Assembly: GCA_041394705.1 (NCBI GenBank) | Contig: JAWKHS010000025.1 | Span: 6,157-70,156, forward strand | Origin: Vicinamibacterales bacterium | GTDB lineage: Bacteria; Acidobacteriota; Vicinamibacteria; Vicinamibacterales; UBA2999 | Length of the DNA stretch: 64,000 nt | Direction: 5' to 3' | Shown: one piece after another, positions 37,325 through 52,859 of the stretch | Position numbering within the stretch: the first letter of the stretch is position 1 | Layout of the letters: every line of letters starts with the position of its first letter | Made by a program: the position numbers and the translations under genes | Notes under the pieces: generated by a model | Seen by the model: only the letters and a program-made list of their open reading frames with translations | What the model was told of the DNA's origin: nothing | The model's database searches: none

Positions 37325-38763
37325 GCTGGATGCCGTCCGATTCCCGGTCTCCCAATCGTGGCGGCGGGCCGGACTCACCGCGCGGCCTCGGAGCGATCGA
37401 CGCGGCGATTCTGGCGCTGGGCGCCGTGGCCGCGTCGGTGGCCGTCACCGGGGGCTTCCGCGTCGAACTGCCTGGAGTCCGGCTGTCGGTGACGTCGTGG
37501 GCGCGCGTGGCCCTGCTGGCGGGGGGGCTTGCGGTCCTGCGGCACGTCTGGCGGCGGTCGCCGGCGCTGCCCGTCGCGGTCTGGCGCCGCGTCGCCGCGT
37601 GGCGGCGGGACGAGGTGACGCGCGCCACCTGGCCGCTCGTGGTGACCACCCGGATCGGCGTCCTCGTGGTCGGCCTGCTGGCCGTGTATGCGTTCGGCTA
37701 CCCGGACGGGCGATCGTTGCTCAGGGTCGGGGAGGGCGAAGTCGCCAACCTGCCGGCGCGCTACGACGCGGGCTGGTATCTGAGCATCGCCTCGCGCGGC
37801 TACGAGTACCGCCCCAACCGCGTCGACGTGCAGCAGAACCTGGTCTTCTTCCCGGCGTTTCCTGTCGTGATGCACGGCGCGTCGCTGCTGTTGGCCCGGC
37901 AGTTCGTGTGGAGCGGAACGCTCGTGTCGATCCTGGCGTTCGCGTGGGCGCTTCGCTACCTGTTCCGTCTGGCGCGCGAGCTGATGGGCGACGAACGGGC
38001 CGCGACGGCGGCGGCGTTGCTGGCGGCGTATCCCTTTGCCTTGTTCTACAGCGCGCCGTATACCGAGGCCCTGTTCCTGCTCGCCATGCTGGGCGCATGG
38101 TGGCACGCGCGGCGGGACGAGCGGTGGGCCGGGTTCGGGTGGGGGCTCGTCGCCGGCCTGACCCGACCGAACGGCTGTCTGCTGTCGGTCCCCCTGGCGC
38201 TGATGGCGGTGGCTCCGCTCTGGAGTGAGGGCCGCTTCCGACGGCCGCCGGGCGGATGGGGGGCCCTCGTCGACCGGCTCGTCATCGCCGCGGCGCCGGG
38301 TCTCGGGATGTTGATCTATTCGGCCTACGTCTACGACAAGACGGGCGATCCGTTCATGTGGATCCGTCTGCAGGCGGCCTGGGGACGCGAGAATCGCGGC
38401 GTCGCGGCGTTCATCGGGAACGAGTGGGAGACGATCGGCGCCGTCGGGCTCTACGACTACTCGACCGGCAACGTGCCCAATCTCCTGAACGCCCTCGGCG
38501 CCCTCCTCTGCACGGCCGCGATCGTGCCGGTGTGGCGGCGCTTCGGCCTGCCCGCCGCCAGCGTCATCGTGCTGAACCTCGTGCCGTCGATCGCCACCGG
38601 CGGCTGGCTGTCGGTGGGCCGGGCCACCGCGGTGCTGTTCCCGGTGTTCCTCTGGCTCGGCGATGCCGTGCCCGCCCGCCACCGGACGCTCTGGCTCGTC
38701 GCGTTCGCGGCCCTCCAGGCGTTCGCGGCGTCGCTGTTCTTCACCTGGCGGCAGCTGTTCTGA
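37321..38763 (+). CDS. polytopic GT-C protein, PIG-V/GT76-like mannosyltransferase family
   Basis: ATG 37321 overlaps the previous stop (ATGA). 480 aa. DAGWYLSIA and NLVFFPAFPVVM blocks typical of PIG-V-like proteins. The family call is from memory. Confidence 0.72.
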   Translation: MSWMPSDSRSPNRGGGPDSPRGLGAIDAAILALGAVAASVAVTGGFRVELPGVRLSVTSWARVALLAGGLAVLRHVWRRSPALPVAVWRRVAAWRRDEVTRATWPLVVTTRIGVLVVGLLAVYAFGYPDGRSLLRVGEGEVANLPARYDAGWYLSIASRGYEYRPNRVDVQQNLVFFPAFPVVMHGASLLLARQFVWSGTLVSILAFAWALRYLFRLARELMGDERAATAAALLAAYPFALFYSAPYTEALFLLAMLGAWWHARRDERWAGFGWGLVAGLTRPNGCLLSVPLALMAVAPLWSEGRFRRPPGGWGALVDRLVIAAAPGLGMLIYSAYVYDKTGDPFMWIRLQAAWGRENRGVAAFIGNEWETIGAVGLYDYSTGNVPNLLNALGALLCTAAIVPVWRRFGLPAASVIVLNLVPSIATGGWLSVGRATAVLFPVFLWLGDAVPARHRTLWLVAFAALQAFAASLFFTWRQLF

Positions 38764-38852: not shown

Positions 38853-41372
38853 ATGCTGTCACCCGTCGCACTTCGCCGCTGCGGTGCCGTCCTGGCGATG
38901 TCGGTCGCCTGTCTGGCCGCGCCCGGTCCCTGGCACCCCGCCGCCCATGCTCAGCGGACGGCGGATCCGCGCGAGGCCGCCGCCGACGCGCTCGACCACG
39001 GCCGCTACGAGCAGGTGCAGAGCGCCCTGGCCCAGCTGCCGGCGGACGACATCGGCGCCGCCGTCCTGCGCGCGCGGGCCCTCGTGGCGGTCGGGAAGTA
39101 CGCCGACGCGGAGCAGGCCCTCCTTCCCGCGGCCACGCGCAACGTCACCGGCGACGCGATGGTCGAGCTCGGCCTCGTGCAGCGCATGCAGGGCAAGCGC
39201 GAGGGCCTCCGCGCGCTGTCGATCGTCCTCTCGCGCGATCTGCTGGCGGGATCGGCAGCCGAGTACGTCCGCGCGGGGCGTGCGGCGCAGGCCCTCGGCC
39301 GCCTCCAGCAGGCCAACGACTTCTTCCGCCAGGCGGTGGCCCAGGCCCCCACCGACGTCGCCGCGAACGTCGCCTGGGGTGAGCTCTTCCTGCAGGGCCA
39401 CGAACGCGCGGAGGCCGCCCGGTCCTTCCAGGCCGCCCTGCGGACCGATGCGGAGCATCCCGGCGCGCTCATGGGGCTCGCGCGGACCATGGCGGAAGAG
39501 AACCCGCCGGCGGCGCGGAAGCTGGCCGCGCAGGTCCTGTCGATCAATCCGAACGCCGCCGACGCGCGTGTCCTGCTCGCGGAGCTCGCCCTCGACGACG
39601 TCAAACGCGACGAGGCCCGTGAGGACGTCGACAAGGCGCTGGCCGTCAACCCGAACCACTTCGTGGCGCTGTCGCTCAAGGCCGCCATCGCGTGGCTCGA
39701 GCGGCGCCCGGAGGAGGTCACGGCCACCACCGACGCCATCCTCAAGCTGAACCCGACCTACGGCGAGGTCTACCGGGTGATGGGCCAGGTCGCCGGCCGG
39801 AACTACCGCTTCGAGGAGGCGGCCGAATTCGCTCGGCGGGCGCTGACGATCGACCAGTCGAACTGGCGCGCGTTCGCGGACCTCGGCGCCCACCTGATGC
39901 GCACGGGCGACGAGCGCGGCGCGCGGCGGGCGCTGGAGACGGCGTTCCGCGGCGACCCGTTCGACCGCGTCACCTACAACCTGCTGAACCTGCTCGACAC
40001 GCTCGACGGCTTCGAGACGATTCGCGAGGGCGACATGGTCATCCGCCTGCACGCGGACGAGGCTGCCGTCATGCGCGAATACGTCCCCGCGCTGGCGCGC
40101 GAGGCGCTGGCGTCGCTCTCGAAGCGCTGGAACTTCACGCCGGCCGGCCCGATCCTCATCGAGATGTTTCCGAGGCACGACGACTTCGCCGTGCGCACGC
40201 TCGGCCTGCCGGGCATGATCGGCGCCCTCGGCGCCTGCTTCGGCAAGGTGGTCACCCTCGACTCACCGCGCGCGCGACCGCCCGGTGAGTTCAACTGGGG
40301 CGCCACGCTGTGGCACGAGCTCGCGCACGTCATCACGCTGCAGTTGTCGAAGCAGCGCGTGCCGCGGTGGCTCACCGAAGGGATCTCCGTCTGGGAGGAG
40401 ACCCGCGCGCGCCCGGCCTGGGGCCGCGAGATGGAAGTGACCTTCGCCAGCGCCCTGAACGCCGGCCAGGTGATGAAGCTGCGCGACCTCAACGCCGGGT
40501 TCAGCAGCCCGCAGCTCATCTCCCTGGCGTACTACGAGGCGTCGCTGCTCGTGGAGCACATCGTCGCGCGCTTCTCCGAGCCGTCGCTCCGCGAGCTGGT
40601 TCGCGTGTTCTCCGAGGATCTCGACACCGAGGCGGCCGTCACGCGCGTGCTCAAGGTGAGCCTCGACGACCTCCAGGGCAGCTTCGACGGGTTCCTCGAC
40701 GAGCGCTTCGGACGCCTGCGACGCGCGCTCGCCGCGCCGGAGGGGTTCGATCCCTCCGCGCCCCTCGACCGGCTGCGCGCGGCCGCCGCCGCGAATCCCG
40801 GGAGCTTCCCGGTGCAGATGGCGCTCGGCCTCGCGCTCGAGAAGGGCGAGCCCGACGCCGCCATCGGCGTCTACCGGAAGGCCGCCGAGCTCGTGCCGAT
40901 CGCGACCGGCGCGGAAAGTCCGCAGGCGCGCATCGCGGCGCTGCTCACGGCCAAGGGCGACACGGCCGGCGCCGCCCGCGCGCTCGAGACGCTGACCACG
41001 GCCGATCACACCGATGTCGCCTCGGCCCGCCAGCTCGTGGGGCTGCTCGACCCGGAGACCGACGGGCCGCGCCGCCAGGCCGCGCTCGCCAAGGTCGTGG
41101 CGATCGACCCGTTCGATGCCGCAGCCCACACCGAGATCGGCCGGTCCGCGCTCGAGGCGGGACGGCTGCCCCAGGCGATTCAGGCGTTCCGCGTCGCGGT
41201 GGCCGCCGGGCCGCAGGACAGAGCCGGCGCGCACGCCGACCTGGGCGAGGCGCTCGAGAAGGCCGGATCCAAGGCCGACGCGAAGGCCCAGGCGCTCCAG
41301 GCCCTCGAGGTCGCGCCGACCTACGTGCGCGCCCAGGAGCTGCTGCTGCGTCTGGTGGAGTCGCCCCAGTGA
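38853..41372 (+). CDS. secreted TPR-repeat protein with central peptidase-MA (gluzincin) domain
   Basis: ATG 38853 (alternative GTG 38850) inside track ORF 38256..41372. 839 aa. Signal peptide. TPR-like repeats on both sides of LWHELAHV...RWLTEGISVWEE (nt 40314-40379). Confidence 0.85.
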   Translation: MLSPVALRRCGAVLAMSVACLAAPGPWHPAAHAQRTADPREAAADALDHGRYEQVQSALAQLPADDIGAAVLRARALVAVGKYADAEQALLPAATRNVTGDAMVELGLVQRMQGKREGLRALSIVLSRDLLAGSAAEYVRAGRAAQALGRLQQANDFFRQAVAQAPTDVAANVAWGELFLQGHERAEAARSFQAALRTDAEHPGALMGLARTMAEENPPAARKLAAQVLSINPNAADARVLLAELALDDVKRDEAREDVDKALAVNPNHFVALSLKAAIAWLERRPEEVTATTDAILKLNPTYGEVYRVMGQVAGRNYRFEEAAEFARRALTIDQSNWRAFADLGAHLMRTGDERGARRALETAFRGDPFDRVTYNLLNLLDTLDGFETIREGDMVIRLHADEAAVMREYVPALAREALASLSKRWNFTPAGPILIEMFPRHDDFAVRTLGLPGMIGALGACFGKVVTLDSPRARPPGEFNWGATLWHELAHVITLQLSKQRVPRWLTEGISVWEETRARPAWGREMEVTFASALNAGQVMKLRDLNAGFSSPQLISLAYYEASLLVEHIVARFSEPSLRELVRVFSEDLDTEAAVTRVLKVSLDDLQGSFDGFLDERFGRLRRALAAPEGFDPSAPLDRLRAAAAANPGSFPVQMALGLALEKGEPDAAIGVYRKAAELVPIATGAESPQARIAALLTAKGDTAGAARALETLTTADHTDVASARQLVGLLDPETDGPRRQAALAKVVAIDPFDAAAHTEIGRSALEAGRLPQAIQAFRVAVAAGPQDRAGAHADLGEALEKAGSKADAKAQALQALEVAPTYVRAQELLLRLVESPQ

Positions 41373-42205
41373 CGGCCGACGACGGGGAACGCCGGCGGCG
41401 GCGTGCCCGCGGTCCGGGCCCGGTGCTGGCGGCGCTCCTGGTGCTCGTCGTGCCGGCCGTGTCCTCGCTGGCGCGCGGCGCCGCGGCGCAGCCCGGCGTG
41501 TTCAAGGAAGAGCGCTTCGCCGGCCTCCAGTGGACGTTCGTCCGCGTCAAGTACACGCCGACGACGGGGGACCTCGCCATGCGGACGCGCTTCGGCTTCT
41601 GGGACGATCCCTGGGCCATCGACGGCCCCGCCGCCGATCAGAACCTCTCGCGCCGCGTCCAGACGGCCACGGCCATCGAGGTGGGCGAGCCGCTCGCCAT
41701 GGCCCTCGACGATCCGCGCCTCTGGCAGTATCCGTGGCTGTACCTCGTCGAGCCGAGCAACGTCGTCATGAGCGACGCCGAGGCCGCCACGCTCCGCGAA
41801 TTCCTGCTGCGGGGCGGGACGCTCACCCTCGACGACTTCCATGGCTCGTTCGAGTGGGAGCTCACCACGCGCTGGCTCGGCAAGGTGTTCCCCGACCGGG
41901 AGGTCGTCGAAATCGCGCCGCCGCACCCGATCTACACCTCGTTCTACCAGCTCGATCGTTACCCGCAGGTGCCGGGCGTGGGCTCGTTCCTGAACGGCCG
42001 TACCTGGGAGAAGGGCGGCTACACGGCGCACCTGCGCGGCATCCTTGACGACACGGGCCGCCCCATGGTGCTCATCAACTGGAACACCGACATGGGCGAC
42101 GGCTGGGAATGGTCCAACGCCGACGAGTATCCGGGCTACCTGAAGTGGACGTCGGTCGCCTACCAGATGATGATCAACGAGATCGTGTACACGCTCACAC
42201 ACTAG
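41369..42205 (+). CDS. DUF4159-like protein (GATase1-like fold), signal peptide
   Basis: GTG 41369 overlaps the previous stop (GTGA). 278 aa. LWQYPWLYLVEPSNVVMSDAEAATLREFLLRGGTLTLDDFHG block. Confidence 0.82.
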   Translation: MTADDGERRRRRARGPGPVLAALLVLVVPAVSSLARGAAAQPGVFKEERFAGLQWTFVRVKYTPTTGDLAMRTRFGFWDDPWAIDGPAADQNLSRRVQTATAIEVGEPLAMALDDPRLWQYPWLYLVEPSNVVMSDAEAATLREFLLRGGTLTLDDFHGSFEWELTTRWLGKVFPDREVVEIAPPHPIYTSFYQLDRYPQVPGVGSFLNGRTWEKGGYTAHLRGILDDTGRPMVLINWNTDMGDGWEWSNADEYPGYLKWTSVAYQMMINEIVYTLTH

Positions 42206-42213
42206 GAGCGGGG

Positions 42214-42233
42214 CCCGGGGCTCGGGACCCGGG
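42214..42233 (+). other. 6-bp GC hairpin followed by GCTTTCG between the DUF4159-like gene and moxR (possible attenuator)
   Basis: CCCGGG-gctcggga-CCCGGG then gctttcg, read directly. Confidence 0.2.
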
Positions 42234-42255
42234 GCTTTCGAAGGAAGCGGCGCGC

Positions 42256-43266
42256 ATGAATCGGACGACGGACCTACACGGCGAAGACCTCGCGTCGCGG
42301 GTGGCCGCGGGGCGGGCCAGGATTCTCGAGCAGCTGCGGCTGGTGATCGTCGGCCAGGACGAGGTGGTCGACCAGGTGCTCATCGCGCTCTTCACCGGCG
42401 GCCACTGCCTGCTCACGGGCGTGCCCGGCCTGGCCAAGACGCTGCTCATCAAGACGCTCGCGAACATCCTCGACCTGAGCTTCAAACGCATCCAGTTCAC
42501 GCCGGACCTGATGCCCGCCGACATCACGGGCACCGAGATCCTCGACGAGGCCGACGGCGTGCGCGCCCTCCGCTTCGTGCGCGGGCCGATCTTCGCGCAG
42601 ATCCTGCTGGCCGACGAGATCAACCGGACGCCGCCCAAGACGCAGGCGGCGCTCCTCGAGGCGATGCAGGAGTTCCACGTCACGGCCGCCGGGCGCACCT
42701 ACGCGCTCGACCGCCCGTTCTTCGTCCTGGCCACCCAGAACCCGATCGAGCTGGAGGGCACCTACCCGCTGCCCGAGGCGCAGCTGGACCGGTTCATGTT
42801 CAACGTGACGATGTCGTACCTGTCGGAGGACGACGAGGTGAAGGTGGTCACCGAGACCACCGGCGGGCGCCGCCCCCAGCCGGTCCACGTGTTGAGCGGC
42901 GAGGACATCCTGGCCTTCCACGACGTGGTCCGCGAGGTGGTCGTCGCCGACGACGTCGCTCGCTACGCCGTCCGCCTGGTGGATGCCTCGCGGCCGGGCC
43001 GCGGCCCGCGGCTCGACTTCGTCGAGAAGTGGGTGAAATGGGGCGCCGGGCTCCGCGCGTCCCAGGCGCTCATCCTCGGTTCCAAGGCGCGCGCGCTCAT
43101 GCACGGACGCTTCCACGTGTCGGTCAAGGACATCCAGGCGCTCGCCAAGCCGATCCTGCGCCACCGGGTGATCCCGAACTTCTACGGCGAGGCCGAGGGC
43201 ATCACGCCCGACATCCTCGTGGACCGCCTCCTCGGCGCGATCCCCCCGCCCGCGAGCGGGTTGTGA
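42256..43266 (+). CDS. MoxR-family AAA+ ATPase
   Basis: ATG 42256, 8 nt after GAAGGAAG. 336 aa. Walker A GVPGLAKT, Walker B LLADEINR, ATQNPIE. Confidence 0.95.
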   Translation: MNRTTDLHGEDLASRVAAGRARILEQLRLVIVGQDEVVDQVLIALFTGGHCLLTGVPGLAKTLLIKTLANILDLSFKRIQFTPDLMPADITGTEILDEADGVRALRFVRGPIFAQILLADEINRTPPKTQAALLEAMQEFHVTAAGRTYALDRPFFVLATQNPIELEGTYPLPEAQLDRFMFNVTMSYLSEDDEVKVVTETTGGRRPQPVHVLSGEDILAFHDVVREVVVADDVARYAVRLVDASRPGRGPRLDFVEKWVKWGAGLRASQALILGSKARALMHGRFHVSVKDIQALAKPILRHRVIPNFYGEAEGITPDILVDRLLGAIPPPASGL

Positions 43267-43270
43267 AGCC

Positions 43271-44161
43271 ATGGCCGCCCCCTCGCGCTACCTCGACCCA
43301 GGAGTGCTCGCCCGGCTGGGCACGCTCGATCTGAAGGCCAAGACGGTCGTCGAGGGCGTGCTGGCCGGCCTGCACCGCAGTCCGCGTCGGGGCTTCAGCG
43401 TCGAGTTCGCCGAGTACCGCCAGTACCTCCCGGGCGATGCGCTCTCCACGATCGACTGGAAGGTGTTCGCCCGCACCGACCGCCACTTCGTGAAGAAGTT
43501 CGAGGAGGACACCAACCTCGACTGCCACCTGCTGCTCGACGTCAGCAGTTCCATGCAGTACGGCTCGCACGCGGTCACCAAGCGCGAGTACGGCTGCTAC
43601 CTGGCGGCGGCGCTCGCCTACCTGATGCACCATCAGCGCGACGCCGTGGGCCTCATCGCCTTCGACGAGGACATCGTGCACCGCGTGCCGCCCTCGGCCA
43701 GGAGCGGCCACCTCCGCACGGTCCTCCTGGCGCTCGAGCGCCTGCCGTCGGGGTCGCGGACCAACGTCGCCAAGCCGCTCGGCGATCTCGCGAAGGTCCT
43801 GTCCAAGCGGGGACTGGTCGTCGTGATCTCGGACCTCCTGGACGATCCCGACCGCGTCATCCGCGGGCTGAAGCACTTCCGCCAGCGCGGCACCGACGTC
43901 ATCGTCTTCCACCTCCTGGATCCGCAGGAATTGCGCTTCACGTTCTCCGATGCCGCGCGCTTCCGCGATCCCGAGTCGTCCAACGAGGTCTTCGCCGACC
44001 CCGCCGTCGTGCGCGAGGGCTACCTGGCGGCCGTGCAGGGCCTGGTCGGCACCTACCGGCGCGAACTGGGCGGCGCCGGCGTGGACTACCACGTGCTCGA
44101 CACCTCGCAGCCGCTGGACGTGGCCCTCATGTCGTACCTGACGGCGCGGGCCAGGAGCTAG
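43271..44161 (+). CDS. DUF58 protein (VWA-like MoxR partner)
   Basis: 296 aa. GFSVEFAEYRQYLPGDALSTIDWKVFARTDRHFVKKFEEDTN signature. Confidence 0.9.
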   Translation: MAAPSRYLDPGVLARLGTLDLKAKTVVEGVLAGLHRSPRRGFSVEFAEYRQYLPGDALSTIDWKVFARTDRHFVKKFEEDTNLDCHLLLDVSSSMQYGSHAVTKREYGCYLAAALAYLMHHQRDAVGLIAFDEDIVHRVPPSARSGHLRTVLLALERLPSGSRTNVAKPLGDLAKVLSKRGLVVVISDLLDDPDRVIRGLKHFRQRGTDVIVFHLLDPQELRFTFSDAARFRDPESSNEVFADPAVVREGYLAAVQGLVGTYRRELGGAGVDYHVLDTSQPLDVALMSYLTARARS

Positions 44162-44167
44162 GGGCCG

Positions 44168-46075
44168 ATGTTCGGACTGGGGTTCCTGGCGCCGGCGTTC
44201 CTGGCGGGCCTCCTCGCCGTGGCCGTCCCCGTCGTGCTGCACCTCTTCCACAGGCGGACCGACCGCGTGGTCGACTTCCCGGCCGCGGGCATGGTGCCGG
44301 ACGCCCCGGTCCAGCAGCAGGAGCGGCGGCGCCTCCGCGACCTCCTCCTGCTGGCGCTTCGCGTCGGCGCGCTCGTGCTGCTCGCGTTCTCCTTCGCCCG
44401 GCCGTACGTGCAGGGGGCCGGCGACGGGCTCACCGGCCGTACCACCATCGTGGCGGTCGACGTGTCGCTCAGCACCTCGGCGCCGGCCACCTGGCGCGAA
44501 CTGCGGCGGCGGGCCCTCGCGGCCGTGGACGAGGCGCCAGCGGCCGACCTGGTGGGCGTCGTCGCCTTCGACGATCTCGGCCGGATCGTCGCGCCGCCGT
44601 CGGCGAGCCGTGACGCCGCGCGGTCGGCGGTCGAGACGCTCGTGGCGGGCGCCGGCGGCACGAGCTACGCCGCGGCGCTCGGCACGGCGGTCGACGCGCT
44701 CGGCGGCGCGTCCGGCCGGATCGTCGTCGTCACCGACCTCCAGCAGCGAGGCTGGGCGGGCCGGGACCAGGTGACCGTGCCCGGCGGGGTGGACGTGCGC
44801 GTGGACGCCGTTCCGCCCGCCCCCGACAATCTCGCCGTCACGGCGCTGCGCGCCGGCGATGCCGTGACCGCGGTCGTCCAGAACTTCGCGCCTGGGCCTC
44901 GAGCGACCGTGGCGCGGCTGACGGTCGACGGCCGGGAGGTGGCGCGCGTCGACACGGCGCTCGCGCCCCTCGCGGCGGCGGAAGTGCGGTTTCCGGGCCG
45001 GCCTCCCGCGCGCGGCGTCGCCGCCGTGTCGATCGACGATGCCGACGGCTTCCAGGGCGACAACGTGCGCTACCGGGCGCTCGACCCCGAACGTCCGCTG
45101 CGGGTGCTCGTGCTCACGGCCGACCCGCCGGAGACGGCGACCACCGGGCTGTACGTGCAACGCGCGCTCGAAGCGGCGGGCGAGGCCTGGCCTGTGGAGG
45201 TCGACGTGCGGGACGGGCGGCGCTTCAGCGCCGCCGCCGGTCCGGCGTACGACGCCGCCGTCGTCGTCGGCACGCGGACGCTGGACCGGGGCGGCCGCGC
45301 GCGACTGGCGGCGTATCTGAGCGGCGGCGGGCGCGTGCTGCTGTCACTCGGGCCCGACGTCGACGTCCCCACGCTCGGCGAGGCCCTCGGGTTCCAGTTG
45401 CGCGTCTCGCCGGAGCCGGTCACGCCGCGCGCGGACGACACCGCCATCGTCGCCTCCGATCGCCGCCATCCCGTATGGCGGCTCCTGGCCGGCACGCGCT
45501 CGGCCCTGGGCCGCGTGGCCATCGGCCAGTACCGCCAGGTCCTGGACGAGGCCGGCTGGGACGTGCTGGCGCGCTTTGCCGGCGGCGCCATCGCCTTCGC
45601 CGAACGGCGCGTCGAGCGCGGCACGCTCCTGCTCTTCGCCTCGGACCTCGACAACCGCTGGAACCGCTTCCCGCTCGAGCCGGGGTTCGCGCCGTTCATC
45701 GTCGAGTCGGCGCAGTACCTCACGCGCGGGGTCCGGCCGGCGACCGCGTTCGTCCTGCCGGACGTCCCCGCCGACGTGCCTCCGCAGCCGGGCGTGCATC
45801 GCGCGGCCGCGGCCGGCGGCGCGCCGTCGCCGGCGATCGTCGTGAACGTCGATCCGGCCGAGAGCGACCCGTCCGCCATCACGGCCGAGGCCTTTGCGGC
45901 CCGTGTCCAGACGGTCGGGACCCCCGATGGGCCGGCCCTCGACGAAGACGCCCGGGCCCGCGAGGAGCGGCAGCGCCTGTGGCAGGTCGGCCTGGCCGTG
46001 ATGCTGGGGCTGCTGGTGGTCGAGAGCCTCGTGGGGCGGCAGCGGCGGCCGCGCGTCGCGCCACGGAGCGGGTAG
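44168..46075 (+). CDS. BatA-type protein: N-terminal double-TM anchor + VWA domain + C-terminal domain
   Basis: 635 aa. FLAPAFLAGLLAVAVPVVLHLFHRR N-terminal aerotolerance-type anchor. VAVDVSLS...GGTSY VWA/MIDAS-like blocks. Confidence 0.85.
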   Translation: MFGLGFLAPAFLAGLLAVAVPVVLHLFHRRTDRVVDFPAAGMVPDAPVQQQERRRLRDLLLLALRVGALVLLAFSFARPYVQGAGDGLTGRTTIVAVDVSLSTSAPATWRELRRRALAAVDEAPAADLVGVVAFDDLGRIVAPPSASRDAARSAVETLVAGAGGTSYAAALGTAVDALGGASGRIVVVTDLQQRGWAGRDQVTVPGGVDVRVDAVPPAPDNLAVTALRAGDAVTAVVQNFAPGPRATVARLTVDGREVARVDTALAPLAAAEVRFPGRPPARGVAAVSIDDADGFQGDNVRYRALDPERPLRVLVLTADPPETATTGLYVQRALEAAGEAWPVEVDVRDGRRFSAAAGPAYDAAVVVGTRTLDRGGRARLAAYLSGGGRVLLSLGPDVDVPTLGEALGFQLRVSPEPVTPRADDTAIVASDRRHPVWRLLAGTRSALGRVAIGQYRQVLDEAGWDVLARFAGGAIAFAERRVERGTLLLFASDLDNRWNRFPLEPGFAPFIVESAQYLTRGVRPATAFVLPDVPADVPPQPGVHRAAAAGGAPSPAIVVNVDPAESDPSAITAEAFAARVQTVGTPDGPALDEDARAREERQRLWQVGLAVMLGLLVVESLVGRQRRPRVAPRSG

Positions 46076-46097
46076 GATACGAAGAGCGGCATTTTCC

Positions 46098-49000
46098 ATG
46101 GCGGACGAGCTGACGACGCTCCGCGCGCTTCTCGATGACATCGCCCGTCGGCGGGCGTCGCTGGCGTGGCGCCGCGCGTGGATCGCCGGAGCCGTGGCCG
46201 CGGCCGTCGCGCTCGCGGCCTCGCGGGCCGCCGTCGCGCTCGGGGCGCCCGACGGTCTGGTTCTGCTGGCGGTGGTCGGCTTCGGCGTGGCCGTGGCCGG
46301 CCTCGCGCTGGCCGTCGCGCTCGTCGGCGCCAGGGAGACGTCCACGCCGCTGCAGATCGCGCGCCTCGTCGAGGAGCGCCTCGGTGGACTGGACGACGTG
46401 GTGGCGACGGCCGTGGACTACGCGGCCCGGCCGGACCATCGTCCGGGCATCGCCGATCAGCTGGCGGCGTCCGCGCTCCGGGCCGCCGGTCCTGGCGTGA
46501 CCGACGCCGTCGTGGACCCCGACACCGTCCGCCGGACCAACCGCCGCGCCTGGGCCGCGACGGCCGCGCTGGCCGCCTCGGTGGCGCTCCTCGTCGGACC
46601 GCTCGGCCGGGCGGGCGAGGTGGCCGCCGCTTACCTGATGCCGTCGCGGCTCGCGCTCACCGTGGAGCCCGGCAACGTCCGGGTGCGCGCCGGGCGCCCC
46701 GTCACCATCACCGCGCGTATCGACGGCACCACGGCCGTGACGCCCGCGCTCGTGGCCGGCGACGGCGCCGAGCCCGCGCCGATGCGGCTCGAGCCCGATG
46801 GCGCGTTCGTGGCGACCGTGCCCGACGTGACGGCCTCGTTCGACTACCGCGTGGTGGCCGGCGGCCGCGAGTCGCCGGCCTACACCGTGACCGTCGTGCA
46901 TCCGGCGCGCGTGGAGCGGATCGATCTCGACCTCACGTTCCCCACGGCCCTGGGCCTCGCGCCACGGCACGAAGAGGACGGCGGCGACATCTACGCCCCC
47001 GAAGGCACGACGGTCCGCCTGACCGTCACGGCCGACCGCGCCGTGGAGTCCGGCGCGCTGGTGATGGGCGACGGCACCCGGGTGGCCCTCGCCGGGGGCG
47101 GGCGGGTCGCCTCGGCGGATCTCACCGTGTCGGCGGATGGCTCCTACCGTGTCGCCTTCGTCGACGACGACGGCGTCGAGATGCCCGACGACACCGAGTA
47201 CTTCATCCGGACGTTGCTCGATCGGCCGCCAGACGTCCGGATCCTGCGGCCCGCCGGCGACCGGCAGGTCACGCCGCTCGAAGAGGTGCTCATCGAGGCG
47301 CGCGCGGACGACGACTTCGGCGTGAAGAGCTTCGACCTCGTGCTGCAGAAGCCGGGCGATGCCGAGGTGGTGGTGCCGCTGCGGGGCACGGCGAGCGCGC
47401 TCACCGTCAACGGCGCCCACACCCTCTACCTGGAAGACCTCGAAGTCGCGCCCGGTGATGTCGTCAGCTACTACGTCAGGGCGCGCGACATCGGGCGCGG
47501 CAAGCCGTCGTCGGAGACGCGCAGCGACATGTTCTTCCTCGAGGTGAAGGCGTTCGACGACGAGTTCGTGGCGGCGCAGAGCCAGGCCATGGCGGCCAGC
47601 GGTCAGGCCCAGGGCGTGCTGGATCTCGCCGCCGCCCAGAAGGAGATCGTCGTCGCCACGTGGAAGCTCGACAGCCGCGGCCGGCGCGCGAATCGGGAGG
47701 CCTCGGCCGCCGACGTGCGCGCCCTGGCTGCCGCCCAGCGCGCGCTCGAGCAGCGCGCGGCCAAGGAAGCGGGCAGCCAGCTCCAGCCGGCGAGCCCGGG
47801 CGGCCCGCGCCGGCGGGGCGGGCAGGCCACCCTCAGCACGATCGGCGACGATCCGATTGGCCTCGCCATCGAGGCCATGCGCCGCGCGGCCACCGAGCTG
47901 GACCGCGCCCGGACCGGCACGGCGCTGCCGCACGAGATGGAGGCGCTCAATCAACTCCTCAAGGCGGAAGCCGACGTGAAGCGGCGCCAGGTGGCGCGCC
48001 AGCAGAGCGGTGGGGGAGGCGGAAGCCGCCAGGCGCCCGATCTGTCGGCGCTCTTCGATCAGGAACTGCGCAAGCAGCAGGAGACCACGTACGAAACCCC
48101 TGACTCCGCCGAGACGCGTCAGGACGGGACGCGCGAGGACGACCCGCTGGCGGCGCTCCGCGAGCTGGCGCGCCGGCAGGAAGCGCTGAGCCGCGATCAG
48201 CGCGATCTGGCCCGCCAGCAGGACGGCCTGGACGCGGAGACCGTGAAGCGCCGGCTCGAACGGCTCACGCGCGACCAGGAACAGCTCCGCCGCGAGCTGG
48301 AGCAGCTGGCGCGGCAGCTGCCGCAGCCGAACGGCCAGCGCGATCCAGGCTCGCAGGGTGAACGGCGTGACGCGGCGGCGTCCTCCGGACAGCAGAAAGG
48401 CGCGAGCGGGCCACCGCAGACCGCGGGGACGCAGGGCGCCTCGTCCGGATCGGGCCAGGCCGCGGGGCAGAGCGCCGCCAGCCAGACGTCGGATGGCGAC
48501 CGGCAGGCGCTGCGCGACGCGGTCTCGGAGATGCGGCAGGCCTCGTCGGGATTGCGTGACGAGGACGCGGAGCGGGCCAGCCAGAGCGCCACGCGCGCGC
48601 TCGAGCAGATGCGGCGGGCCGAGGACGCGCTTCAAGGGTCGACGGCCGAGGACCTGCAGCGGCGTCTCGGCGACGTGCAGCTGGAGGCCCGGCAGCTCGC
48701 CGAGGCGCAGCGGCGCCTGACCGATCGCGTCGCCCGCGGCGGCACCGCCGAGGGACGTGCCGACGCCCGCCAGGCGGCCGGCGAACAGACGCGGCTGGCG
48801 GCGCGCACCGAGCGCCTGAAGGAACGCATGCGCGCGCTGGCACGGCAGGCACCGCAGGGCGACGGCCGCCAGACCCTCGACCAGGCAGGGCGCGAGCTCG
48901 AATCCGGGCGCGCCGCCGATCTGATGCGCGAGGCGTCGCGCGCGCTCGCCGGCCAGGAGCGGACCGAGGCGGCGGCCGGCTCGACGGGCGCCGCGTCGTC

Positions 49001-49673
49001 CACGGCCCAGCCGTCGGCCTCGCGCGCGGGGGCCGGGACGTCCGCGGACGAGGCGGCGCGTCTCGGGCGGCAGGCCGCGCAGGCGATGGACCGCGTCGCC
49101 GATCGTCTCGACGGCCGCAGGGAGGCCGATGGCCCGGCGACGGCCCGGCTGTCGGACGACCTGACGCGCACGCGCGAGCTGCGCGAGCAGCTCGCGCGCA
49201 TCGATCGCGCGCTGGCCGACCTCAAGGCCACCGAGGGCCGGCAGTCGGCGGCGGACGCGCGCGAGGGCCGGGGACAGGAGGCGGGGACCGAGGGCGCGGC
49301 CGCCGACGGAGAAGTCGACCGGCTTCGCCGCCAGCTGACCGAGGAGCTGCGGCAGGCGCGGGAGCAGGTGGACGCGCTTGGGCGTGGGTCGGCCGACCTG
49401 CGCGGCGGATCGACGCCGGAGCAGTGGCAGCCGAGCACGTCGGCGCCTGGCACGGAGGCCTTCAAGCAGGACTTCGCGCGGTGGGACAGCCTGAAGCAGA
49501 ACCTGCTGCTCGCGCTCGAGAAGGTCGAGCAGGGCCTGTCGGACGCGCTGCGCCAGCAGGAGACGCGGGATCGCCTGAGCGCCGGCCGCTCCGAGGCCGT
49601 GCCCGACGACTACCGGAAGCTCGTGGACAAGTACTACCGATCGCTCGCGGCGCCGCGGCGGCCGGAGCGGTGA
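46098..49673 (+). CDS. large DUF4175-like membrane protein with charged coiled-coil C-terminal half
   Basis: 1191 aa. Two N-terminal TM helices. A beta-rich middle region. About 550 aa rich in R/Q/E/A. C-terminal DDYRKLVDKYYRSL. Confidence 0.8.
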   Translation: MADELTTLRALLDDIARRRASLAWRRAWIAGAVAAAVALAASRAAVALGAPDGLVLLAVVGFGVAVAGLALAVALVGARETSTPLQIARLVEERLGGLDDVVATAVDYAARPDHRPGIADQLAASALRAAGPGVTDAVVDPDTVRRTNRRAWAATAALAASVALLVGPLGRAGEVAAAYLMPSRLALTVEPGNVRVRAGRPVTITARIDGTTAVTPALVAGDGAEPAPMRLEPDGAFVATVPDVTASFDYRVVAGGRESPAYTVTVVHPARVERIDLDLTFPTALGLAPRHEEDGGDIYAPEGTTVRLTVTADRAVESGALVMGDGTRVALAGGGRVASADLTVSADGSYRVAFVDDDGVEMPDDTEYFIRTLLDRPPDVRILRPAGDRQVTPLEEVLIEARADDDFGVKSFDLVLQKPGDAEVVVPLRGTASALTVNGAHTLYLEDLEVAPGDVVSYYVRARDIGRGKPSSETRSDMFFLEVKAFDDEFVAAQSQAMAASGQAQGVLDLAAAQKEIVVATWKLDSRGRRANREASAADVRALAAAQRALEQRAAKEAGSQLQPASPGGPRRRGGQATLSTIGDDPIGLAIEAMRRAATELDRARTGTALPHEMEALNQLLKAEADVKRRQVARQQSGGGGGSRQAPDLSALFDQELRKQQETTYETPDSAETRQDGTREDDPLAALRELARRQEALSRDQRDLARQQDGLDAETVKRRLERLTRDQEQLRRELEQLARQLPQPNGQRDPGSQGERRDAAASSGQQKGASGPPQTAGTQGASSGSGQAAGQSAASQTSDGDRQALRDAVSEMRQASSGLRDEDAERASQSATRALEQMRRAEDALQGSTAEDLQRRLGDVQLEARQLAEAQRRLTDRVARGGTAEGRADARQAAGEQTRLAARTERLKERMRALARQAPQGDGRQTLDQAGRELESGRAADLMREASRALAGQERTEAAAGSTGAASSTAQPSASRAGAGTSADEAARLGRQAAQAMDRVADRLDGRREADGPATARLSDDLTRTRELREQLARIDRALADLKATEGRQSAADAREGRGQEAGTEGAAADGEVDRLRRQLTEELRQAREQVDALGRGSADLRGGSTPEQWQPSTSAPGTEAFKQDFARWDSLKQNLLLALEKVEQGLSDALRQQETRDRLSAGRSEAVPDDYRKLVDKYYRSLAAPRRPER

Positions 49674-49677
49674 CCGG

Positions 49678-51873
49678 ATGCGCTTCGCCGTTGCGTTGCC
49701 GTGGTGGGGCTACGCGCTCATCGCCGGCATGGCCGTCGCCGTGGCCGTGTACACCTATGCCGGCGCGTGGCTGCCGCCGCGCCGGCGCGCTGTCCTGACG
49801 GTCCTGCGCGCCCTCGCGCTGCTGCTGCTGTCGGCGGCCGTCCTCCGCCCCGTCCGCGTCCTGCCGCCCGCCGCCGCCCGCGATCGCCTCGTTCCGATCC
49901 TGGTGGACGTGTCGCGCAGCATGCGCGTGGCCGACGGGCAGGGTCCGGCGCGGATGGAGCGCGCGCGGCGCGTCGCCGCCCAGCTCACGCAGGCGCTCCA
50001 GGCATCCGTGCGCACCGAGCTGTGGGCCTTCGGCGACGGCGCCGCCCGGGCCGCGCTCGGCGACCTGCAGGCCTCGGCCGGCCGGTCCGATCTCGCCGGC
50101 GCGCTCAAGACCGTCGCCGAGCACTACCGGGGCCGCCCGCTGGGCGGTGTCATCGTGGTGTCCGACGGCGGCGACACGGCGTCTGCCGATGCCGCCTCGC
50201 TGCCCGCGGTGCCCGTCTTCACCGTGGGCGTGGGCGAGCCCCACGTCACGCGGGACCGCGAGGTCATCGCCATGTCGGCCGGAGAGCCGCGCCTGGCGGA
50301 TTCCACCGTGGACGTCCACGTGTCGGCCGTCAGTTCGGGGTTCGGCACGCAGCCGCTCGAGCTCACGCTCTCGGCCAACGGCCGCCCGATCGAGGTGCGG
50401 CGGCTCTCCTCGGCCGATGGCGCGCCGGTCACGGCCGTCTTCACGGTGTCGCCCGATCCGAAGGTGCCCACGGTCTACCGGGTGGACGTCCCCGTGGCGC
50501 CGGGCGAGACCGCCAGCGAGAACAACACGCGCAGCGTGCTCGTGGAGCCGCCGGGCCGCCCGCGCCGGCTCCTCCTCGTCGAGGGCGCGCCGGGCTACGA
50601 GCACACCTTCCTGAAGCGCGCGCTCGCCCACGACACGAGCCTGGACGTCGACTCGGTCATCAGGAAGGGGCAGACCGACGACGGCGCGCCCACCTTCTTC
50701 GTGCAGGCGGCCGCGTCCAGGGCCGGAGCACTCGCCGCCGGCTACCCGCGCACGCGCGCCGACCTCTTCGCCTACGACGCCGTGGTGTTCGGCAACGTGG
50801 ACGCCGCGTTCTTCTCGAAGGAGCAACTCGAGGCGACGGCCGACTTCGTGGCCGTGCGAGGCGGCGGCCTGCTGGTGCTGGGTGGGCGGTCGTTCGACCG
50901 GGAGGGCCTCGCCGGCACGCCGATCGACGAAGTGCTGCCGGTGGACATGTCCGATCGGCGCGCCACCGTGGCCCGCGCGTCCACGGGCGAGCCGGGCGGC
51001 GCCGGCGTGCGCCTGACGCCGGACGGTGCCGACCATCCGGCGACGCGGCTCGGGGCATCGGCCGACGAAGCGGCCCGCCGCTGGGCCGCGCTGCCGCCGC
51101 TGGCGGCCGTCTCGGCCGTGGGCGGACCACGGCCGGGCGCGCTCGTGCTCGTCACGAGCGGCACCGCGACCGACGCGCGGCCGCTCGTCACGGTCCAGCG
51201 CTACGGTCAGGGCCGCGCGATGGTGTTCGCGGGCGAGGCCTCGTGGCACTGGCGCATGATGCTTCCGGCGTCGGACGCGACCTACGATACGATCTGGCGT
51301 CAGATGACCCGCTGGCTCGCGCGCGGCTCCCTCGATCGGGTGTCGGTCGTCGCGCTCGGCAACCCCTCGCCGGGCACGGCCGAGACGGCGCCCGTGCTCG
51401 TGCGGGACGAGGCGTTCCAGCCGGTGGACGACGCCGAGGTGCAGGTGGTGGTCACGACCCCGGGCGGGGACGAGACCCGGCTTACGGCCACGCTCGCCGA
51501 CGCCGCGGACGGCCGCTACGAAGTGCCCGTCCGTTTCGAGGACGCCGGCGTCTATCGGGTGTCGGCCGACGCGCGGCGCGGGACCGACCGCCTGGGCACG
51601 GCCGAACGCACGGTGCTCGCGGGCGGCGCCGATCCCGAGATGGCCGATCCGCGGTTGAACGAGGCCGTGCTGCAGCGCCTGTCGGCGCGGACGGGCGGCG
51701 AGTACGTGCGGCCGGACGGGGTGGACGCCATCCCGCCGAAGCTCGCGGTGGCCAGGGTCGTCGACGGGCCGCCGGAGCTGCGCGATCTGTGGCACGGGGC
51801 GTGGAGCCTGCTGGCCGTGATCGGGATCCTGGCCGCGGAGTGGACGCTCAGGCGCCGGATGGGGCTCGTATGA
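49678..51873 (+). CDS. membrane protein with VWA-like and GATase1-like (DUF1355-type) domains
   Basis: 731 aa. N-terminal TM helices. ILVDVSRSM (VWA). AYDAVVFGNVDAAFFSKEQLEATADFVAVRGGGLLVLGG block. C-terminal TM helix. Confidence 0.8.
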   Translation: MRFAVALPWWGYALIAGMAVAVAVYTYAGAWLPPRRRAVLTVLRALALLLLSAAVLRPVRVLPPAAARDRLVPILVDVSRSMRVADGQGPARMERARRVAAQLTQALQASVRTELWAFGDGAARAALGDLQASAGRSDLAGALKTVAEHYRGRPLGGVIVVSDGGDTASADAASLPAVPVFTVGVGEPHVTRDREVIAMSAGEPRLADSTVDVHVSAVSSGFGTQPLELTLSANGRPIEVRRLSSADGAPVTAVFTVSPDPKVPTVYRVDVPVAPGETASENNTRSVLVEPPGRPRRLLLVEGAPGYEHTFLKRALAHDTSLDVDSVIRKGQTDDGAPTFFVQAAASRAGALAAGYPRTRADLFAYDAVVFGNVDAAFFSKEQLEATADFVAVRGGGLLVLGGRSFDREGLAGTPIDEVLPVDMSDRRATVARASTGEPGGAGVRLTPDGADHPATRLGASADEAARRWAALPPLAAVSAVGGPRPGALVLVTSGTATDARPLVTVQRYGQGRAMVFAGEASWHWRMMLPASDATYDTIWRQMTRWLARGSLDRVSVVALGNPSPGTAETAPVLVRDEAFQPVDDAEVQVVVTTPGGDETRLTATLADAADGRYEVPVRFEDAGVYRVSADARRGTDRLGTAERTVLAGGADPEMADPRLNEAVLQRLSARTGGEYVRPDGVDAIPPKLAVARVVDGPPELRDLWHGAWSLLAVIGILAAEWTLRRRMGLV

Positions 51874-52859
51874 TGCGCTGGTCGATGCTCGCCGCTCTCC
51901 TCGCCTGCTGGCCCGCCACGCCCGGCGCCGCGCAGGGCGTCGCGCCGCCAGCGTCGCGCGACGGCCGCTGGGCGGTCGTCGTCAGCGGCGCCTCCGGCGG
52001 GCCCGCCTACGCGAAGCAACTGGCGACGTGGCGCGACGCCATCCAGTCCGCGCTGACAGGGCGCTTCGGCTTCGCGCCCGCGCATGTCCTGCAACTCGTG
52101 GACGAGACCGCGCGCGAGTCCGGCACGCCGGCCACCGCCGAGCAGGTGCGCAAGCTCTTCACCTCGCTCAAGGGCCAGGTGGGGAAGGACGATCTCGTCC
52201 TGCTCGTGCTCCTGGGGCACGGCACCTTCGACGGGCAGCAGGCCAAGTTCAACCTGGTGGGGCCCGATCTCACGGCGGCCGACTGGCGGGCCCTGCTCGA
52301 CGGGCTGCCCGGGCGCGTGGTGGTGGTGAACACGACCGAATCGAGCGCGCCGTTCATGGAGGCGCTGGCCGCCAAGGGCCGTATCGTCATCACGGCGACC
52401 GAGACGGCGGCGCAGAAGTACGCCACGGTGTTCCCCGAGTACTTCGTCAAGGCGCTCGGCGATGCCCAGTCGGATCTCGACAAGAACGGCCGCACCTCGA
52501 TCTGGGAGCTCTTCTCGGCGGCCAGCGGCGCCGTCGCGCGCCACTACGAGGAACGCGCCCAGCTCACGACCGAGCGGGCCATGCTGAGCGACACCGGCGA
52601 CCGGACGGGTGTGCAGGCCTCGGCCACCGGGCCGGTCGGTACGATGGCCCGGTCGTTCTTCCTGGATCGCGACGTCGCGTCCGAGAGCGCCGACCCCGAA
52701 GTGCGGGCCCTCATCGAGCGCCGCCGTGCGCTCGAAGCCGAGGCCGAGGCGCTCATCCAGCAGAAGCCCGGCGCCGACCCGGCCGCGTGGTCCGCCGAGT
52801 TCGAGCGCCTGATGATCGAGCTGGCGCGGGTGTCCCGCGAGGTCAGAAGCCGGTCCTGA
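51870..52859 (+). CDS. secreted legumain (peptidase C13)-fold protein lacking a catalytic cysteine
   Basis: ATG 51870 overlaps the previous stop (ATGA). 329 aa. RWAVVVSGASGGPAYAKQ, LVLLVLLGHGTFDG and VVVVNTTESSAPFM are collinear with legumain blocks. The only Cys is in the signal peptide. Confidence 0.7.
   Translation: MMRWSMLAALLACWPATPGAAQGVAPPASRDGRWAVVVSGASGGPAYAKQLATWRDAIQSALTGRFGFAPAHVLQLVDETARESGTPATAEQVRKLFTSLKGQVGKDDLVLLVLLGHGTFDGQQAKFNLVGPDLTAADWRALLDGLPGRVVVVNTTESSAPFMEALAAKGRIVITATETAAQKYATVFPEYFVKALGDAQSDLDKNGRTSIWELFSAASGAVARHYEERAQLTTERAMLSDTGDRTGVQASATGPVGTMARSFFLDRDVASESADPEVRALIERRRALEAEAEALIQQKPGADPAAWSAEFERLMIELARVSREVRSRS

Follow-up and report, generated by a model that had tools for sequence, protein, structure and literature searches.

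A cluster of eight genes on the forward strand, at positions 38853-52859 of a 64,000-nucleotide stretch of DNA from a soil bacterium of the Vicinamibacterales, phylum Acidobacteriota (the whole stretch is called the window), is, judged from genomic neighbourhoods in several lineages, one conserved module. It combines the core of a Bat-type MoxR ATPase/VWA system with two secreted proteins, namely a TPR-flanked gluzincin (g1) and a legumain-fold protein without a catalytic cysteine (g8), which lie at its two ends in the window. The gene order, translational coupling, and natural fusion of these two genes indicate that their products function as a pair. We tentatively consider the module as a derived relative of the Bat-, MxaRSACKL-, and RL3499-type MoxR-VWA systems, in which the g1-g8 pair could possibly be the periplasmic client or effector. 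The eight genes are as follows.

38853..41372, + strand: g1, secreted TPR-gluzincin (Peptidase_MA_2)-TPR protein, 839 aa (Pfam, AlphaFold (AF2) model)
41369..42205, + strand: g2, secreted DUF4159 protein, 278 aa (Pfam PF13709)
42256..43266, + strand: g3, MoxR-class AAA+ ATPase, predicted cytoplasmic, 336 aa (Pfam AAA_3)
43271..44161, + strand: g4, DUF58 (VWA-like) protein, predicted cytoplasmic, 296 aa (Pfam PF01882)
44168..46075, + strand: g5, BatA-type protein with an N-terminal double transmembrane (TM) segment, a VWA domain, a long extension, and a C-terminal TM segment, 635 aa
46098..49673, + strand: g6, DUF4175-like membrane protein, 1191 aa (Pfam match below the cut-off)
49678..51873, + strand: g7, protein with a double TM segment, VWA, GATase1_like, and Ig-like domains, and a C-terminal hydrophobic segment, 731 aa
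51870..52859, + strand: g8, secreted legumain/metacaspase-fold protein with no catalytic Cys, an EF-hand-like loop, and a C-terminal helical hairpin, 329 aa

A preliminary description of this DNA, made from the sequence alone, had reported eight same-strand coding sequences here. All eight open reading frames (ORFs) are found at the coordinates first given, and the lengths of the junctions from g1 to g8 (-4, +50, +4, +6, +22, +4, and -4 nt) agree exactly with those of the recomputed ORFs. The window has a G+C content of ~72% and contains many long spurious ORFs on both strands. The G+C content at third codon positions is 0.92-0.97 in all eight frames, compared to 0.42-0.56 at second positions, and because this sets them apart from the spurious ORFs, the eight frames can be regarded as real genes.

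The composition and order of the module are retained well beyond the window. A near-identical copy, with 94-100% protein identity, is present on a Vicinamibacterales contig from a metagenome-assembled genome (MAG; L001). The genes g3-g8 are colinear in 60 of 60 genome loci with a window-type g8, which are species representatives having at least 9.9 kb upstream of g8 and g8 identities of 51-94%; in shorter genome loci, g7 lies upstream of g8 in all 13 cases. In metagenome loci centred on g2 (55-85% identity), g1 is directly upstream of g2 in 57 of 58 and moxR is directly downstream of it in 57 of 57. Furthermore, all eight gene types are found in one operon, with the same cyclic order, in each of nine loci of other lineages (L081, L082, L083, L084, L086, L087, L088, L173, and L174), a small sample in which the g8 proteins share at most 50% identity among themselves and 33-45% with the g8 of the window. 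These loci include a 1.1-Mb plasmid of Gemmatirosa kalamazoonensis (L081), a Blastocatellia contig (L086), and a Longimicrobiales MAG (L088), so that Blastocatellia, Gemmatimonadales, Longimicrobiales, and further lineages are represented. The usual order elsewhere is (DUF4159')-g7-g8-g1-DUF4159''-moxR-DUF58-BatA-g6, and overlaps of 4 nt are observed at g7/g8, g8/g1, and g1/DUF4159'' in some distant loci (e.g., L082/L083 and L088). The arrangement g6-g7-g8 of the window recurs on a contig of 48% GC (L175). Since the cyclic order is kept and the break point alone differs, the two proteins that had been described as protease-like bookends of the operon are normally neighbours: g8 and g1 stand side by side in other lineages and are adjacent or fused in a sister clade of Vicinamibacterales. 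The inclusion of both flanking genes in the operon by the preliminary description holds, as g1 and g8 are co-conserved with moxR in all three sets of loci.

Some variations are also observed within the operon. Two DUF4159 genes are present in other lineages (L082/L083, L084, L088, and L173), one before g7 and the other before moxR. The g2 of the window precedes moxR, yet it is nearer to the copy before g7 (38-43% vs ~30% identity), which suggests that the rearrangement that permuted the operon may have involved both DUF4159 paralogues. The operon tolerates the insertion of small mobile or toxin-antitoxin-like genes, as seen in L087 (GCA_975251455.1; positions 10061-11222 and 13455-13718), where small XisH, DUF433, and DUF5615 genes lie between DUF58 and BatA, an MqsA-like gene follows BatA, and a Uma2 gene lies between g7 and g8. 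In the cultured strain Gemmatirosa kalamazoonensis KBS708, the whole module is carried on the megaplasmid, plasmid 1 (NZ_CP007129.1). This plasmid gives two DUF4159 matches, of which the better-scoring one, at 182577-183191, is ~560 kb away from the operon, so that a second, related system may be present on it. A tblastn search of plasmids with g8 and g2 returned only the Gemmatirosa megaplasmid and one Corynebacterium DUF4159 match, and no alphaproteobacterial chromids.

The pairing of g1 with g8 is most directly seen in natural fusions. Two of the best 150 g8 representatives, P0132 and P0137, carry TPR and Peptidase_MA_2 domains ahead of the g8 domain, and a search with P0132 retrieved full-length g1::g8 fusions in 16 clusters at 90% identity, 1107-1170 aa in length and 67-100% identical to one another; the JGI, ENA, NCBI, and Logan samples that contained them are independent. 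The g1 part of the fusions ends at APTYxRAQ(D/E)LLL, as does the g1 of the window, and is followed by a ~30-residue linker rich in Thr, Ala, Pro, and Gly, in place of the g8 signal peptide, and then by the mature g8 domain. Four loci orthologous to that of the window contain the two genes either fused (L089 and L090) or adjacent to each other (L091 and L092). In common with the window, they have upstream genes for a beta-ketoacyl synthase (KAS; 64-75% identity), an FAD oxidoreductase, and ICMT and a downstream convergent rhomboid gene (57-59% identity); the rhomboid gene is followed by an FHA-GAF-SpoIIE gene in L089 and L090, and an HMGL-like gene is found in L089, L090, and L092. The g1 and g8 parts of these loci are 39-45% identical to those of the window, and the flanking genes are 46-75% identical.

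Across Vicinamibacterales, the locus is therefore found in three states, g1-[g2..g7]-g8, g1-g8 adjacent, and g1::g8 fused. In a neighbour-joining tree of g1, the clade having only g1 and g8 is sister to the clade containing g2-g7, and the operons of other phyla form the outgroup. The tree does not prove the direction of change; loss of g2-g7 in the g1-g8-only clade is favoured over insertion on grounds of parsimony, because one deletion from the window order yields exactly g1-g8. Whichever direction is correct, the association of g1 with g8 has been maintained by selection while the locus was permuted, shortened by deletion, or fused.

The g1 protein starts with a hydrophobic, signal-like segment and matches Peptidase_MA_2 with 47.2 bits (cut-off 32.4), along with many TPR families, in Pfam. 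The zinc site HExxH...E is formed by HELAH at residues 488-492 and E509 within WLTEGIS, and none of the four residues (H488, E489, H492, and E509) varies among 30 homologues having 36-42% identity to g1. An AF2 model built on the homologue alignment (pLDDT 90.3, pTM 0.85) contains a TPR solenoid at residues 39-385, an alpha/beta catalytic domain at 388-626, and a second TPR solenoid at 638-836. By its HExxH motif, downstream Glu, and profile score above the cut-off, the predicted protein is a gluzincin of clan MA. It is probably an active zinc peptidase, because the HExxH...E motif is invariant in the homologues and the model is confident.

The g8 protein also has an N-terminal hydrophobic, signal-like segment, and its relationship to the legumain fold emerges from the structure model and from profile comparison. 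The score against Peptidase_C13 (PF01650) is 18.3 bits, under the cut-off of 22.8, and a relative, P0207, passes it with 27.9 bits. With a model of moderate quality (pLDDT 68.6), Foldseek searches against the PDB retrieve metacaspase 4/9, legumain, and GPI8 at E-values from 2e-6 to 1e-3, and the matches with probabilities of 0.99-1.00 comprise Arabidopsis metacaspases 4 and 9, plant legumains, GPI8, MALT1, and caspases. A profile of 18 g8 homologues matches metacaspase-4 with an E-value of 1.3e-6, and the alignment stops at the catalytic His motif GHGT. The family is large: an exhaustive search of 1.84 billion representatives gave 2,307 clusters (50% identity) at E<=1e-3, about 360 of them at E<=1e-30.

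Residue conservation in this family was assessed in an alignment of 100 full-length representatives. G116, H117, and G118, which follow a hydrophobic strand, are conserved in 100, 100, and 97 members, respectively. At position 156, which follows strand four and corresponds to the nucleophile site of clan CD, Ala is found in 47, Thr in 37, and Ser in 16 members, and Cys in none; the surrounding VNTTESS is what we take, from the strand register and the legumain motif, to be the equivalent of EACESGS. No alignment column contains 10% Cys or more among the 100 members, and 68 of them have no Cys beyond residue 35. The sole Cys of the window protein sits in the signal peptide, so that the mature protein is without Cys. 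Whatever the residue-by-residue equivalence, the predicted mature g8 has no thiol nucleophile. The protein shares the caspase-hemoglobinase fold and the catalytic His-Gly with legumain, GPI8, and metacaspases (Peptidase C13/clan CD), whereas its family has Ala, Thr, or Ser at the nucleophile site, an added EF-hand-type loop, and a C-terminal helical hairpin. The preliminary designation of g8 as a legumain-fold protein is thus borne out with respect to the fold, by Foldseek and the metacaspase-4 profile match, but not with respect to protease function. A legumain-type cysteine protease was considered for g8 and rejected, because Cys is lacking both in the mature protein and at any conserved position of the family despite the fold and the catalytic His.

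The added loop, D202-x-D-K-N-G-x-x-S-x-x-E213, is flanked in the model by helices at 182-197 and 211-228, and its liganding positions are 91-100% conserved in the family. The frequencies are 100% for D202, 100% for D/N204, 97% for D/N206, 78% for G207, 94% for V/L/I209, 99% for S210, and 100% for E213, giving the family consensus D202-x-[DN]-[KR]-[DN]-G-R-[VLI]-S-x-x-E213, in which the window protein has Thr at 209. A second conserved loop, DDxGD, is located at 240-244. Collectively, the motifs and the model describe g8 as a secreted protein of the clan CD fold that has no thiol nucleophile and probably binds Ca2+; its most likely role is that of a pseudoenzyme or binding subunit.

The remaining six genes contain the ATPase core. 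The g3 protein matches AAA_3 with 211.7 bits (cut-off 27) and AAA_lid_2 with 50.7 bits in Pfam, has an intact Walker A motif (GVPGLAKT at residue 55), and is 56-63% identical to its orthologues in other phyla; a weak match to bpMoxR (33.8 bits) is also obtained. The g4 gene, starting 4 nt after g3, encodes a DUF58 protein (176.1 bits) that also matches VWA_2, in which the metal ion-dependent adhesion site (MIDAS) motif DxSxS begins at D90. The g5 protein matches BatA (PF07584) with 64.7 bits and VWA_2 with 43.7 bits in Pfam and TIGR02226 with 69.4 bits in NCBIfam, and its MIDAS motif begins at D98. The g7 protein matches VWA_2, GATase1_like (38.0 bits), and a YtkA-like Ig domain, and its MIDAS motif begins at D77. 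The overall plan of g7, a double-TM N-terminus followed by VWA, is like that of g5, and there is no detectable similarity between the two outside the VWA core. The g2 protein matches DUF4159 (PF13709) with 134.6 bits (cut-off 25.9), and its relative in the PDB is 4i66 (Hoch_4089, uncharacterised) with an E-value of 5e-9. The domain calls first made for g1-g5 and g7 (TPR/gluzincin, DUF4159, MoxR, DUF58, BatA, and VWA/GATase1) all lie above the Pfam threshold, with DUF4159, DUF58, and BatA_N recovered by the profile scans, and the Bat-like MoxR-DUF58-BatA core is confirmed by both Pfam scores and gene order.

The giant protein g6 is a less clear case. Its score against DUF4175 (PF13779) is 20.3 bits, below the cut-off of 27.3, and TIGR02302 of NCBIfam is not matched; the label DUF4175-like is therefore sub-threshold for the window protein itself, and it draws support from the orthologues of L082/L083, which match DUF4175 and align to g6 over 806 aa with an E-value of 5e-58. 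Three N-terminal TM segments are predicted. Conservation among 57 orthologues peaks at residues 250-520, a beta-rich core, at 600-700, which is helical, and at 1100-1191, covering the conserved last 90 residues; variable, charged, low-complexity stretches lie between these regions.

The distribution of hydrophobic segments suggests how the module could be arranged in the cell envelope. A hydropathy scan shows no hydrophobic segments in g3 and g4, including no TM segment in the DUF58 protein. In g5, TM segments are predicted at 6-24, 59-77, and 604-622, with an Arg-rich loop between the two N-terminal segments and an Arg-rich tail after the C-terminal one. The g7 protein is built likewise, having TM segments at 4-22 and 38-56 and a C-terminal hydrophobic stretch, WSLLAVIGILAAEW, followed by RRRMGLV. 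The positive-inside rule places the large VWA and GATase1-like domains of these two proteins in the periplasm. The predicted topology of g5 agrees with the layout of BB0173, a BatA-type protein of Borrelia, which was found by experiment to have three TM segments and to reside in the inner membrane with its VWA domain in the periplasm (PMC5700661). Signal-like N-termini are found in g1, g2, and g8, the signal or anchor segment of g2 being at residues 17-35, and a conserved lipobox Cys is absent from these three proteins. The system would accordingly comprise the cytoplasm, the inner membrane, and the periplasm. It had been called a trans-envelope machine, a term that goes too far, since Pfam and NCBIfam scans of the eight proteins, made with no dedicated barrel predictor, found no outer-membrane family, and a link to the outer membrane is unsupported by sequence. 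As a separate observation, g2, g5, g6, and g7, which are predicted to be exposed to the periplasm and comprise 2,835 residues together, contain no cysteine at all.

Among known systems, the module resembles the Bat operon of Bacteroides, Leptospira, and Borrelia (moxR-DUF58-batA-batB-batC-batD-batE) in having MoxR AAA_3, DUF58, and the BatA_N double-TM/VWA protein in this order, as well as a second TM-anchored VWA protein (g7) and a TPR-containing partner (g1). In contrast to the Bat operon, no match to BatD (PF13584) was obtained for the eight proteins at E<=0.01 in Pfam, there is no SH3/BatE, and g1 scores only 22.3 bits against the NCBIfam model of BatC, for which the cut-off is 175. A gluzincin domain is inserted in the TPR protein, and the module adds DUF4159, the DUF4175-like giant, the GATase1_like domain on the second VWA protein, and the Cys-less legumain-fold protein g8. 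DUF4159 is also known in fusion to a BatA_N protein in alphaproteobacteria. For g1, a suitable analogue is BepA (YfgC) of Escherichia coli, a periplasmic M48 zinc metallopeptidase with TPRs that dock on envelope-assembly complexes, which serves as a chaperone for its clients or degrades them. Both join a (predicted) periplasmic zinc peptidase to TPR repeats; however, g1 matches Peptidase_MA_2 rather than M48, its catalytic domain is flanked by a TPR array at either end, and BepA can be considered an analogue rather than a family member.

Among systems of this kind, a biochemical output, namely divalent-metal loading, has been defined for MxaRSACKL alone: the periplasmic methanol dehydrogenase acquires its Ca2+ only if MxaR (MoxR), MxaS (DUF58-type), the VWA proteins MxaC and MxaL, MxaA, and MxaK are all present (PMC12276312). 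Like the present module, it combines MoxR, a DUF58-type VWA protein, and further VWA proteins, and it acts on a periplasmic protein of the same cluster. The client there is a dehydrogenase, whereas none is encoded here and the candidate client is g1 plus g8. Moreover, counterparts of MxaA and MxaK were not identified in the module, and the likening of g5 and g7 to MxaC and MxaL is by architecture.

Two further operons can be compared with the module, one of which, RL3499-RL3502 of Rhizobium leguminosarum, to our knowledge contains no peptidase-like genes. It consists of four genes, unlike the eight found here. Similar to the present module, it comprises an MRP-subfamily MoxR, DUF58, and membrane proteins, and it is broadly conserved (Vanderlinde et al. 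2011, as cited in PMC3893208, PMC5118466, and PMC5700661). Its mutants are reported to be impaired in membrane integrity and morphology (PMC3893208), and phenotypes of this class would be expected for the present module as well. The Arc2 cluster of Pseudomonas aeruginosa (PA4317-PA4323) defends the envelope against a toxin that forms pores in the inner membrane (PMC8926400). [quoted passage not shown] By analogy, the phenotypes of these related operons point to the envelope. A survey of literature on DUF4159, DUF4175, TIGR02226, and MoxR with legumain/C13 found no study of this gene composition.

MoxR ATPases and their VWA adaptors remodel or metal-load one client, and such modules are generally encoded beside it, as for CbbQO and Rubisco, NorQD and cNOR, and CoxD and CODH. 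By the logic of Mxa, g1 and g8 are the candidate client or effector because they are non-core, enzyme-like, and co-conserved. In the mechanism that we tentatively prefer, a MoxR hexamer (g3) would pair with the cytoplasmic VWA adaptor DUF58 (g4), and the two would use ATP on short cytoplasmic segments of the inner-membrane proteins g5, g6, and g7. The periplasmic MIDAS-VWA, GATase1-like, and Ig-like domains, along with soluble DUF4159 (g2), would then constitute a working platform that could mature, metal-load, or gate the g1-g8 pair, in analogy to the Ca2+ loading by MxaRSACKL. Within this pair, g1 would be a zinc gluzincin between two TPR solenoids and g8 its non-catalytic, Ca2+-binding legumain-fold partner, and together they might process or clear envelope proteins in the manner of BepA-like quality control. 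A more specific form, in which g1-g8 would be a two-subunit periplasmic protease with the legumain-fold pseudoenzyme as its regulatory or recognition subunit and the MoxR-DUF58-VWA block as its ATP-driven trans-membrane activator, seems unlikely to us. In a remoter variant, the GPI8-like fold together with the ICMT-like and PIG-V-like GT-C proteins encoded nearby could be a sign that bacteria possess a pathway in which proteins are processed or anchored at the C-terminus.

The surroundings of the operon bear on these readings and contain the following features.

34365..38763, + strand: KAS, FAD_binding_3 oxidoreductase, ICMT/PEMT-family methyltransferase, and PIG-V/PMT-like GT-C membrane protein (Pfam)
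52869-53554, - strand: rhomboid intramembrane protease, convergent with g8, with 9 nt between both stop codons (Pfam)
53964-55634, + strand: FHA-GAF-SpoIIE(PP2C) phosphatase gene, next after the rhomboid gene

The junctions within the upstream cluster are -4, +6, and +5 nt, and a gap of 89 nt separates it from g1. The KAS cluster precedes g1 in 20 of 22 window-type metagenome loci that reach far enough, the GT-C gene being present in some loci only; the ICMT stop codon overlaps the g1 start codon in L089-L092, and two representatives, P0440 and P0445, were called as ICMT+g1 fusions. In the nine loci of other lineages, no KAS/ICMT cluster adjoins the operon. The cluster may represent a pathway of lipid or phenolic-lipid type whose link to g1/g8 is confined to this order. 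More broadly, the locus is embedded in a housekeeping macro-synteny (MTHFR, Lon, rhomboid, HMGL, and Ppx) that is kept across the order.

Concerning the limits of the operon, the 3' end at 52859 stands, since the next gene, rhomboid (stop at 52869), is convergent, but the 5' limit first given may be too tight, as the same-strand KAS cluster is syntenic with g1. Within the cluster, four intrinsic terminators were found against 2.3 expected, which is at chance level, and a consensus promoter scan reported no promoter. The 89-nt gap (38764-38852) holds an AT-rich TATACT hexamer ~26 nt 5' of the g1 ATG, which could be the -10 element of an internal promoter. An Rfam scan of the window gave no match. 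ARAGORN called a tRNA-Ala(CGC) at 26601-26679 (+), within a homocysteine S-methyltransferase/MTHFR fusion gene (25489-27420); because Rfam finds no tRNA there, this call is probably a false positive in GC-rich DNA.

Several points weigh against the preferred assignment of g1-g8 as the client of the MoxR block. The contacts of g3/g4 with the membrane proteins and of the platform with g1/g8, the client relationship, the envelope role, and the topology are all matters that we infer, the topology from a simple hydropathy scan and homologous precedent. A sequence search of the PDB with the g1 peptidase domain found no solved relative, and Foldseek with the whole g1 model retrieved TPR proteins only. 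In addition, L089-L092 keep g1 and g8 with no g2-g7 within 10 kb, and since the pair persists without these genes at the locus, it needs no MoxR block encoded alongside. The position of g1 behind KAS-FAD oxidoreductase-ICMT, both in the window and in the g1-g8-only clade, hints at another partnership. This can be extended to the proposal that the locus comprises two independent units, in which g1 and g8 belong with the KAS-FAD oxidoreductase-ICMT-(GT-C) genes of lipid or glycolipid type and the Bat-type g2-g7 genes merely interrupt or adjoin them. The series KAS-FAD oxidoreductase-ICMT-g1-g8 (or -g1::g8) followed by the same rhomboid gene in other Vicinamibacterales, together with the overlap of ICMT and g1, the synteny in window-type loci, and the called ICMT+g1 fusions, is what this proposal would predict. 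We nevertheless regard it as improbable: g8 and g1 are located within the MoxR operon, with no KAS/ICMT nearby, in all nine loci of other lineages, which makes their link to the MoxR block older and broader than that to KAS, and the 4-nt overlaps tie g8 and g1 to g7 and DUF4159 in some loci (L082/L083 and L088).

A different role for the membrane proteins could be a structural one, where g5, g6, g7, and g2 would form an inner-membrane-anchored periplasmic tether that stabilises the envelope and is assembled by MoxR/DUF58; here g1 and g8 would be accessory proteins that process or turn over scaffold subunits, and not the client of the machine. This proposal appears somewhat less likely to us than the preferred mechanism. 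The long charged helical and low-complexity region between conserved domains of g6 has the expected shape of a spacer or tether, and the intact MIDAS motifs of g5 and g7 would serve protein-protein capture. It also fits the envelope-integrity and morphology phenotypes reported for RL3499-RL3502 (PMC3893208 and PMC5700661) and the accessory status of the TPR proteins BatC and BatE in classical Bat operons (PMC5700661). On the other hand, Pfam and NCBIfam detect no peptidoglycan-binding, OmpA-like, lipoprotein, or beta-barrel domain in the eight proteins, and g1-g8 survive as a pair or fusion where the locus has lost or never had the scaffold genes, which would be difficult to understand if the scaffold were their only substrate. 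The classical Bat hypothesis, in which reducing power is exported to or maintained in the periplasm as a protection from oxygen or oxidative stress, is very unlikely for this module. The homology of the MoxR-DUF58-BatA core to the Bacteroides aerotolerance operon, after whose phenotype BatA (PF07584) is named, speaks for it, but Vicinamibacterales are, as far as is known, aerobes, and no redox domain was found in the eight proteins by Pfam and NCBIfam. Because g2, g5, g6, g7, and mature g8 are without cysteine, thiol chemistry is excluded for these periplasmic parts, and a thiol-redox role for them was rejected. The hypothesis itself, discussed in PMC5700661, is unproven in Bacteroides and Leptospira, and no specific Bat function has been demonstrated experimentally according to that study and another (PMC3557215). 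Finally, a MoxR-VWA biological-conflict or defence system, of the ternary MoxR-vWA or anti-phage island type, is hardly plausible. The weak bpMoxR match of g3 and the presence of a caspase-fold protein, as in some conflict systems (PMC7159879), could be taken in its favour, but AAA_3 is by far the better match for g3, and the caspase-fold protein is predicted to be secreted and is without a nucleophile. With no PADLOC match for any of the eight proteins and the housekeeping macro-synteny across the order, the defence-island reading was rejected.

Bat-type MoxR-DUF58-VWA operons are widespread, and links to aerotolerance, resistance to stress, the integrity of the envelope, and defence against toxins have been described for them; methanol dehydrogenase (Mxa) is the one case with a known client or biochemical activity. 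With the g1-g8 pair, there is now a specific candidate for the client of the ATPase machinery. It is concrete and new that g1 and g8 are coupled and can be fused, that a large clan CD family has lost its Cys and acquired an EF-hand, and that a single locus exists in three states; nothing established is overturned by the module. The g8 family, which keeps the His, has lost the Cys, and has gained the EF-hand, constitutes a clear case of a pseudoenzyme or neo-function in clan CD. The module is found in Acidobacteriota and Gemmatimonadota, two phyla that abound in soil and in which few envelope systems have been characterised, and it is testable because it is present in the cultured Gemmatirosa kalamazoonensis KBS708. 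If g1-g8 were indeed a protease activated by the MoxR block, a Bat-type MoxR system would for the first time have an identified endogenous client, and Bat function would become directly testable.

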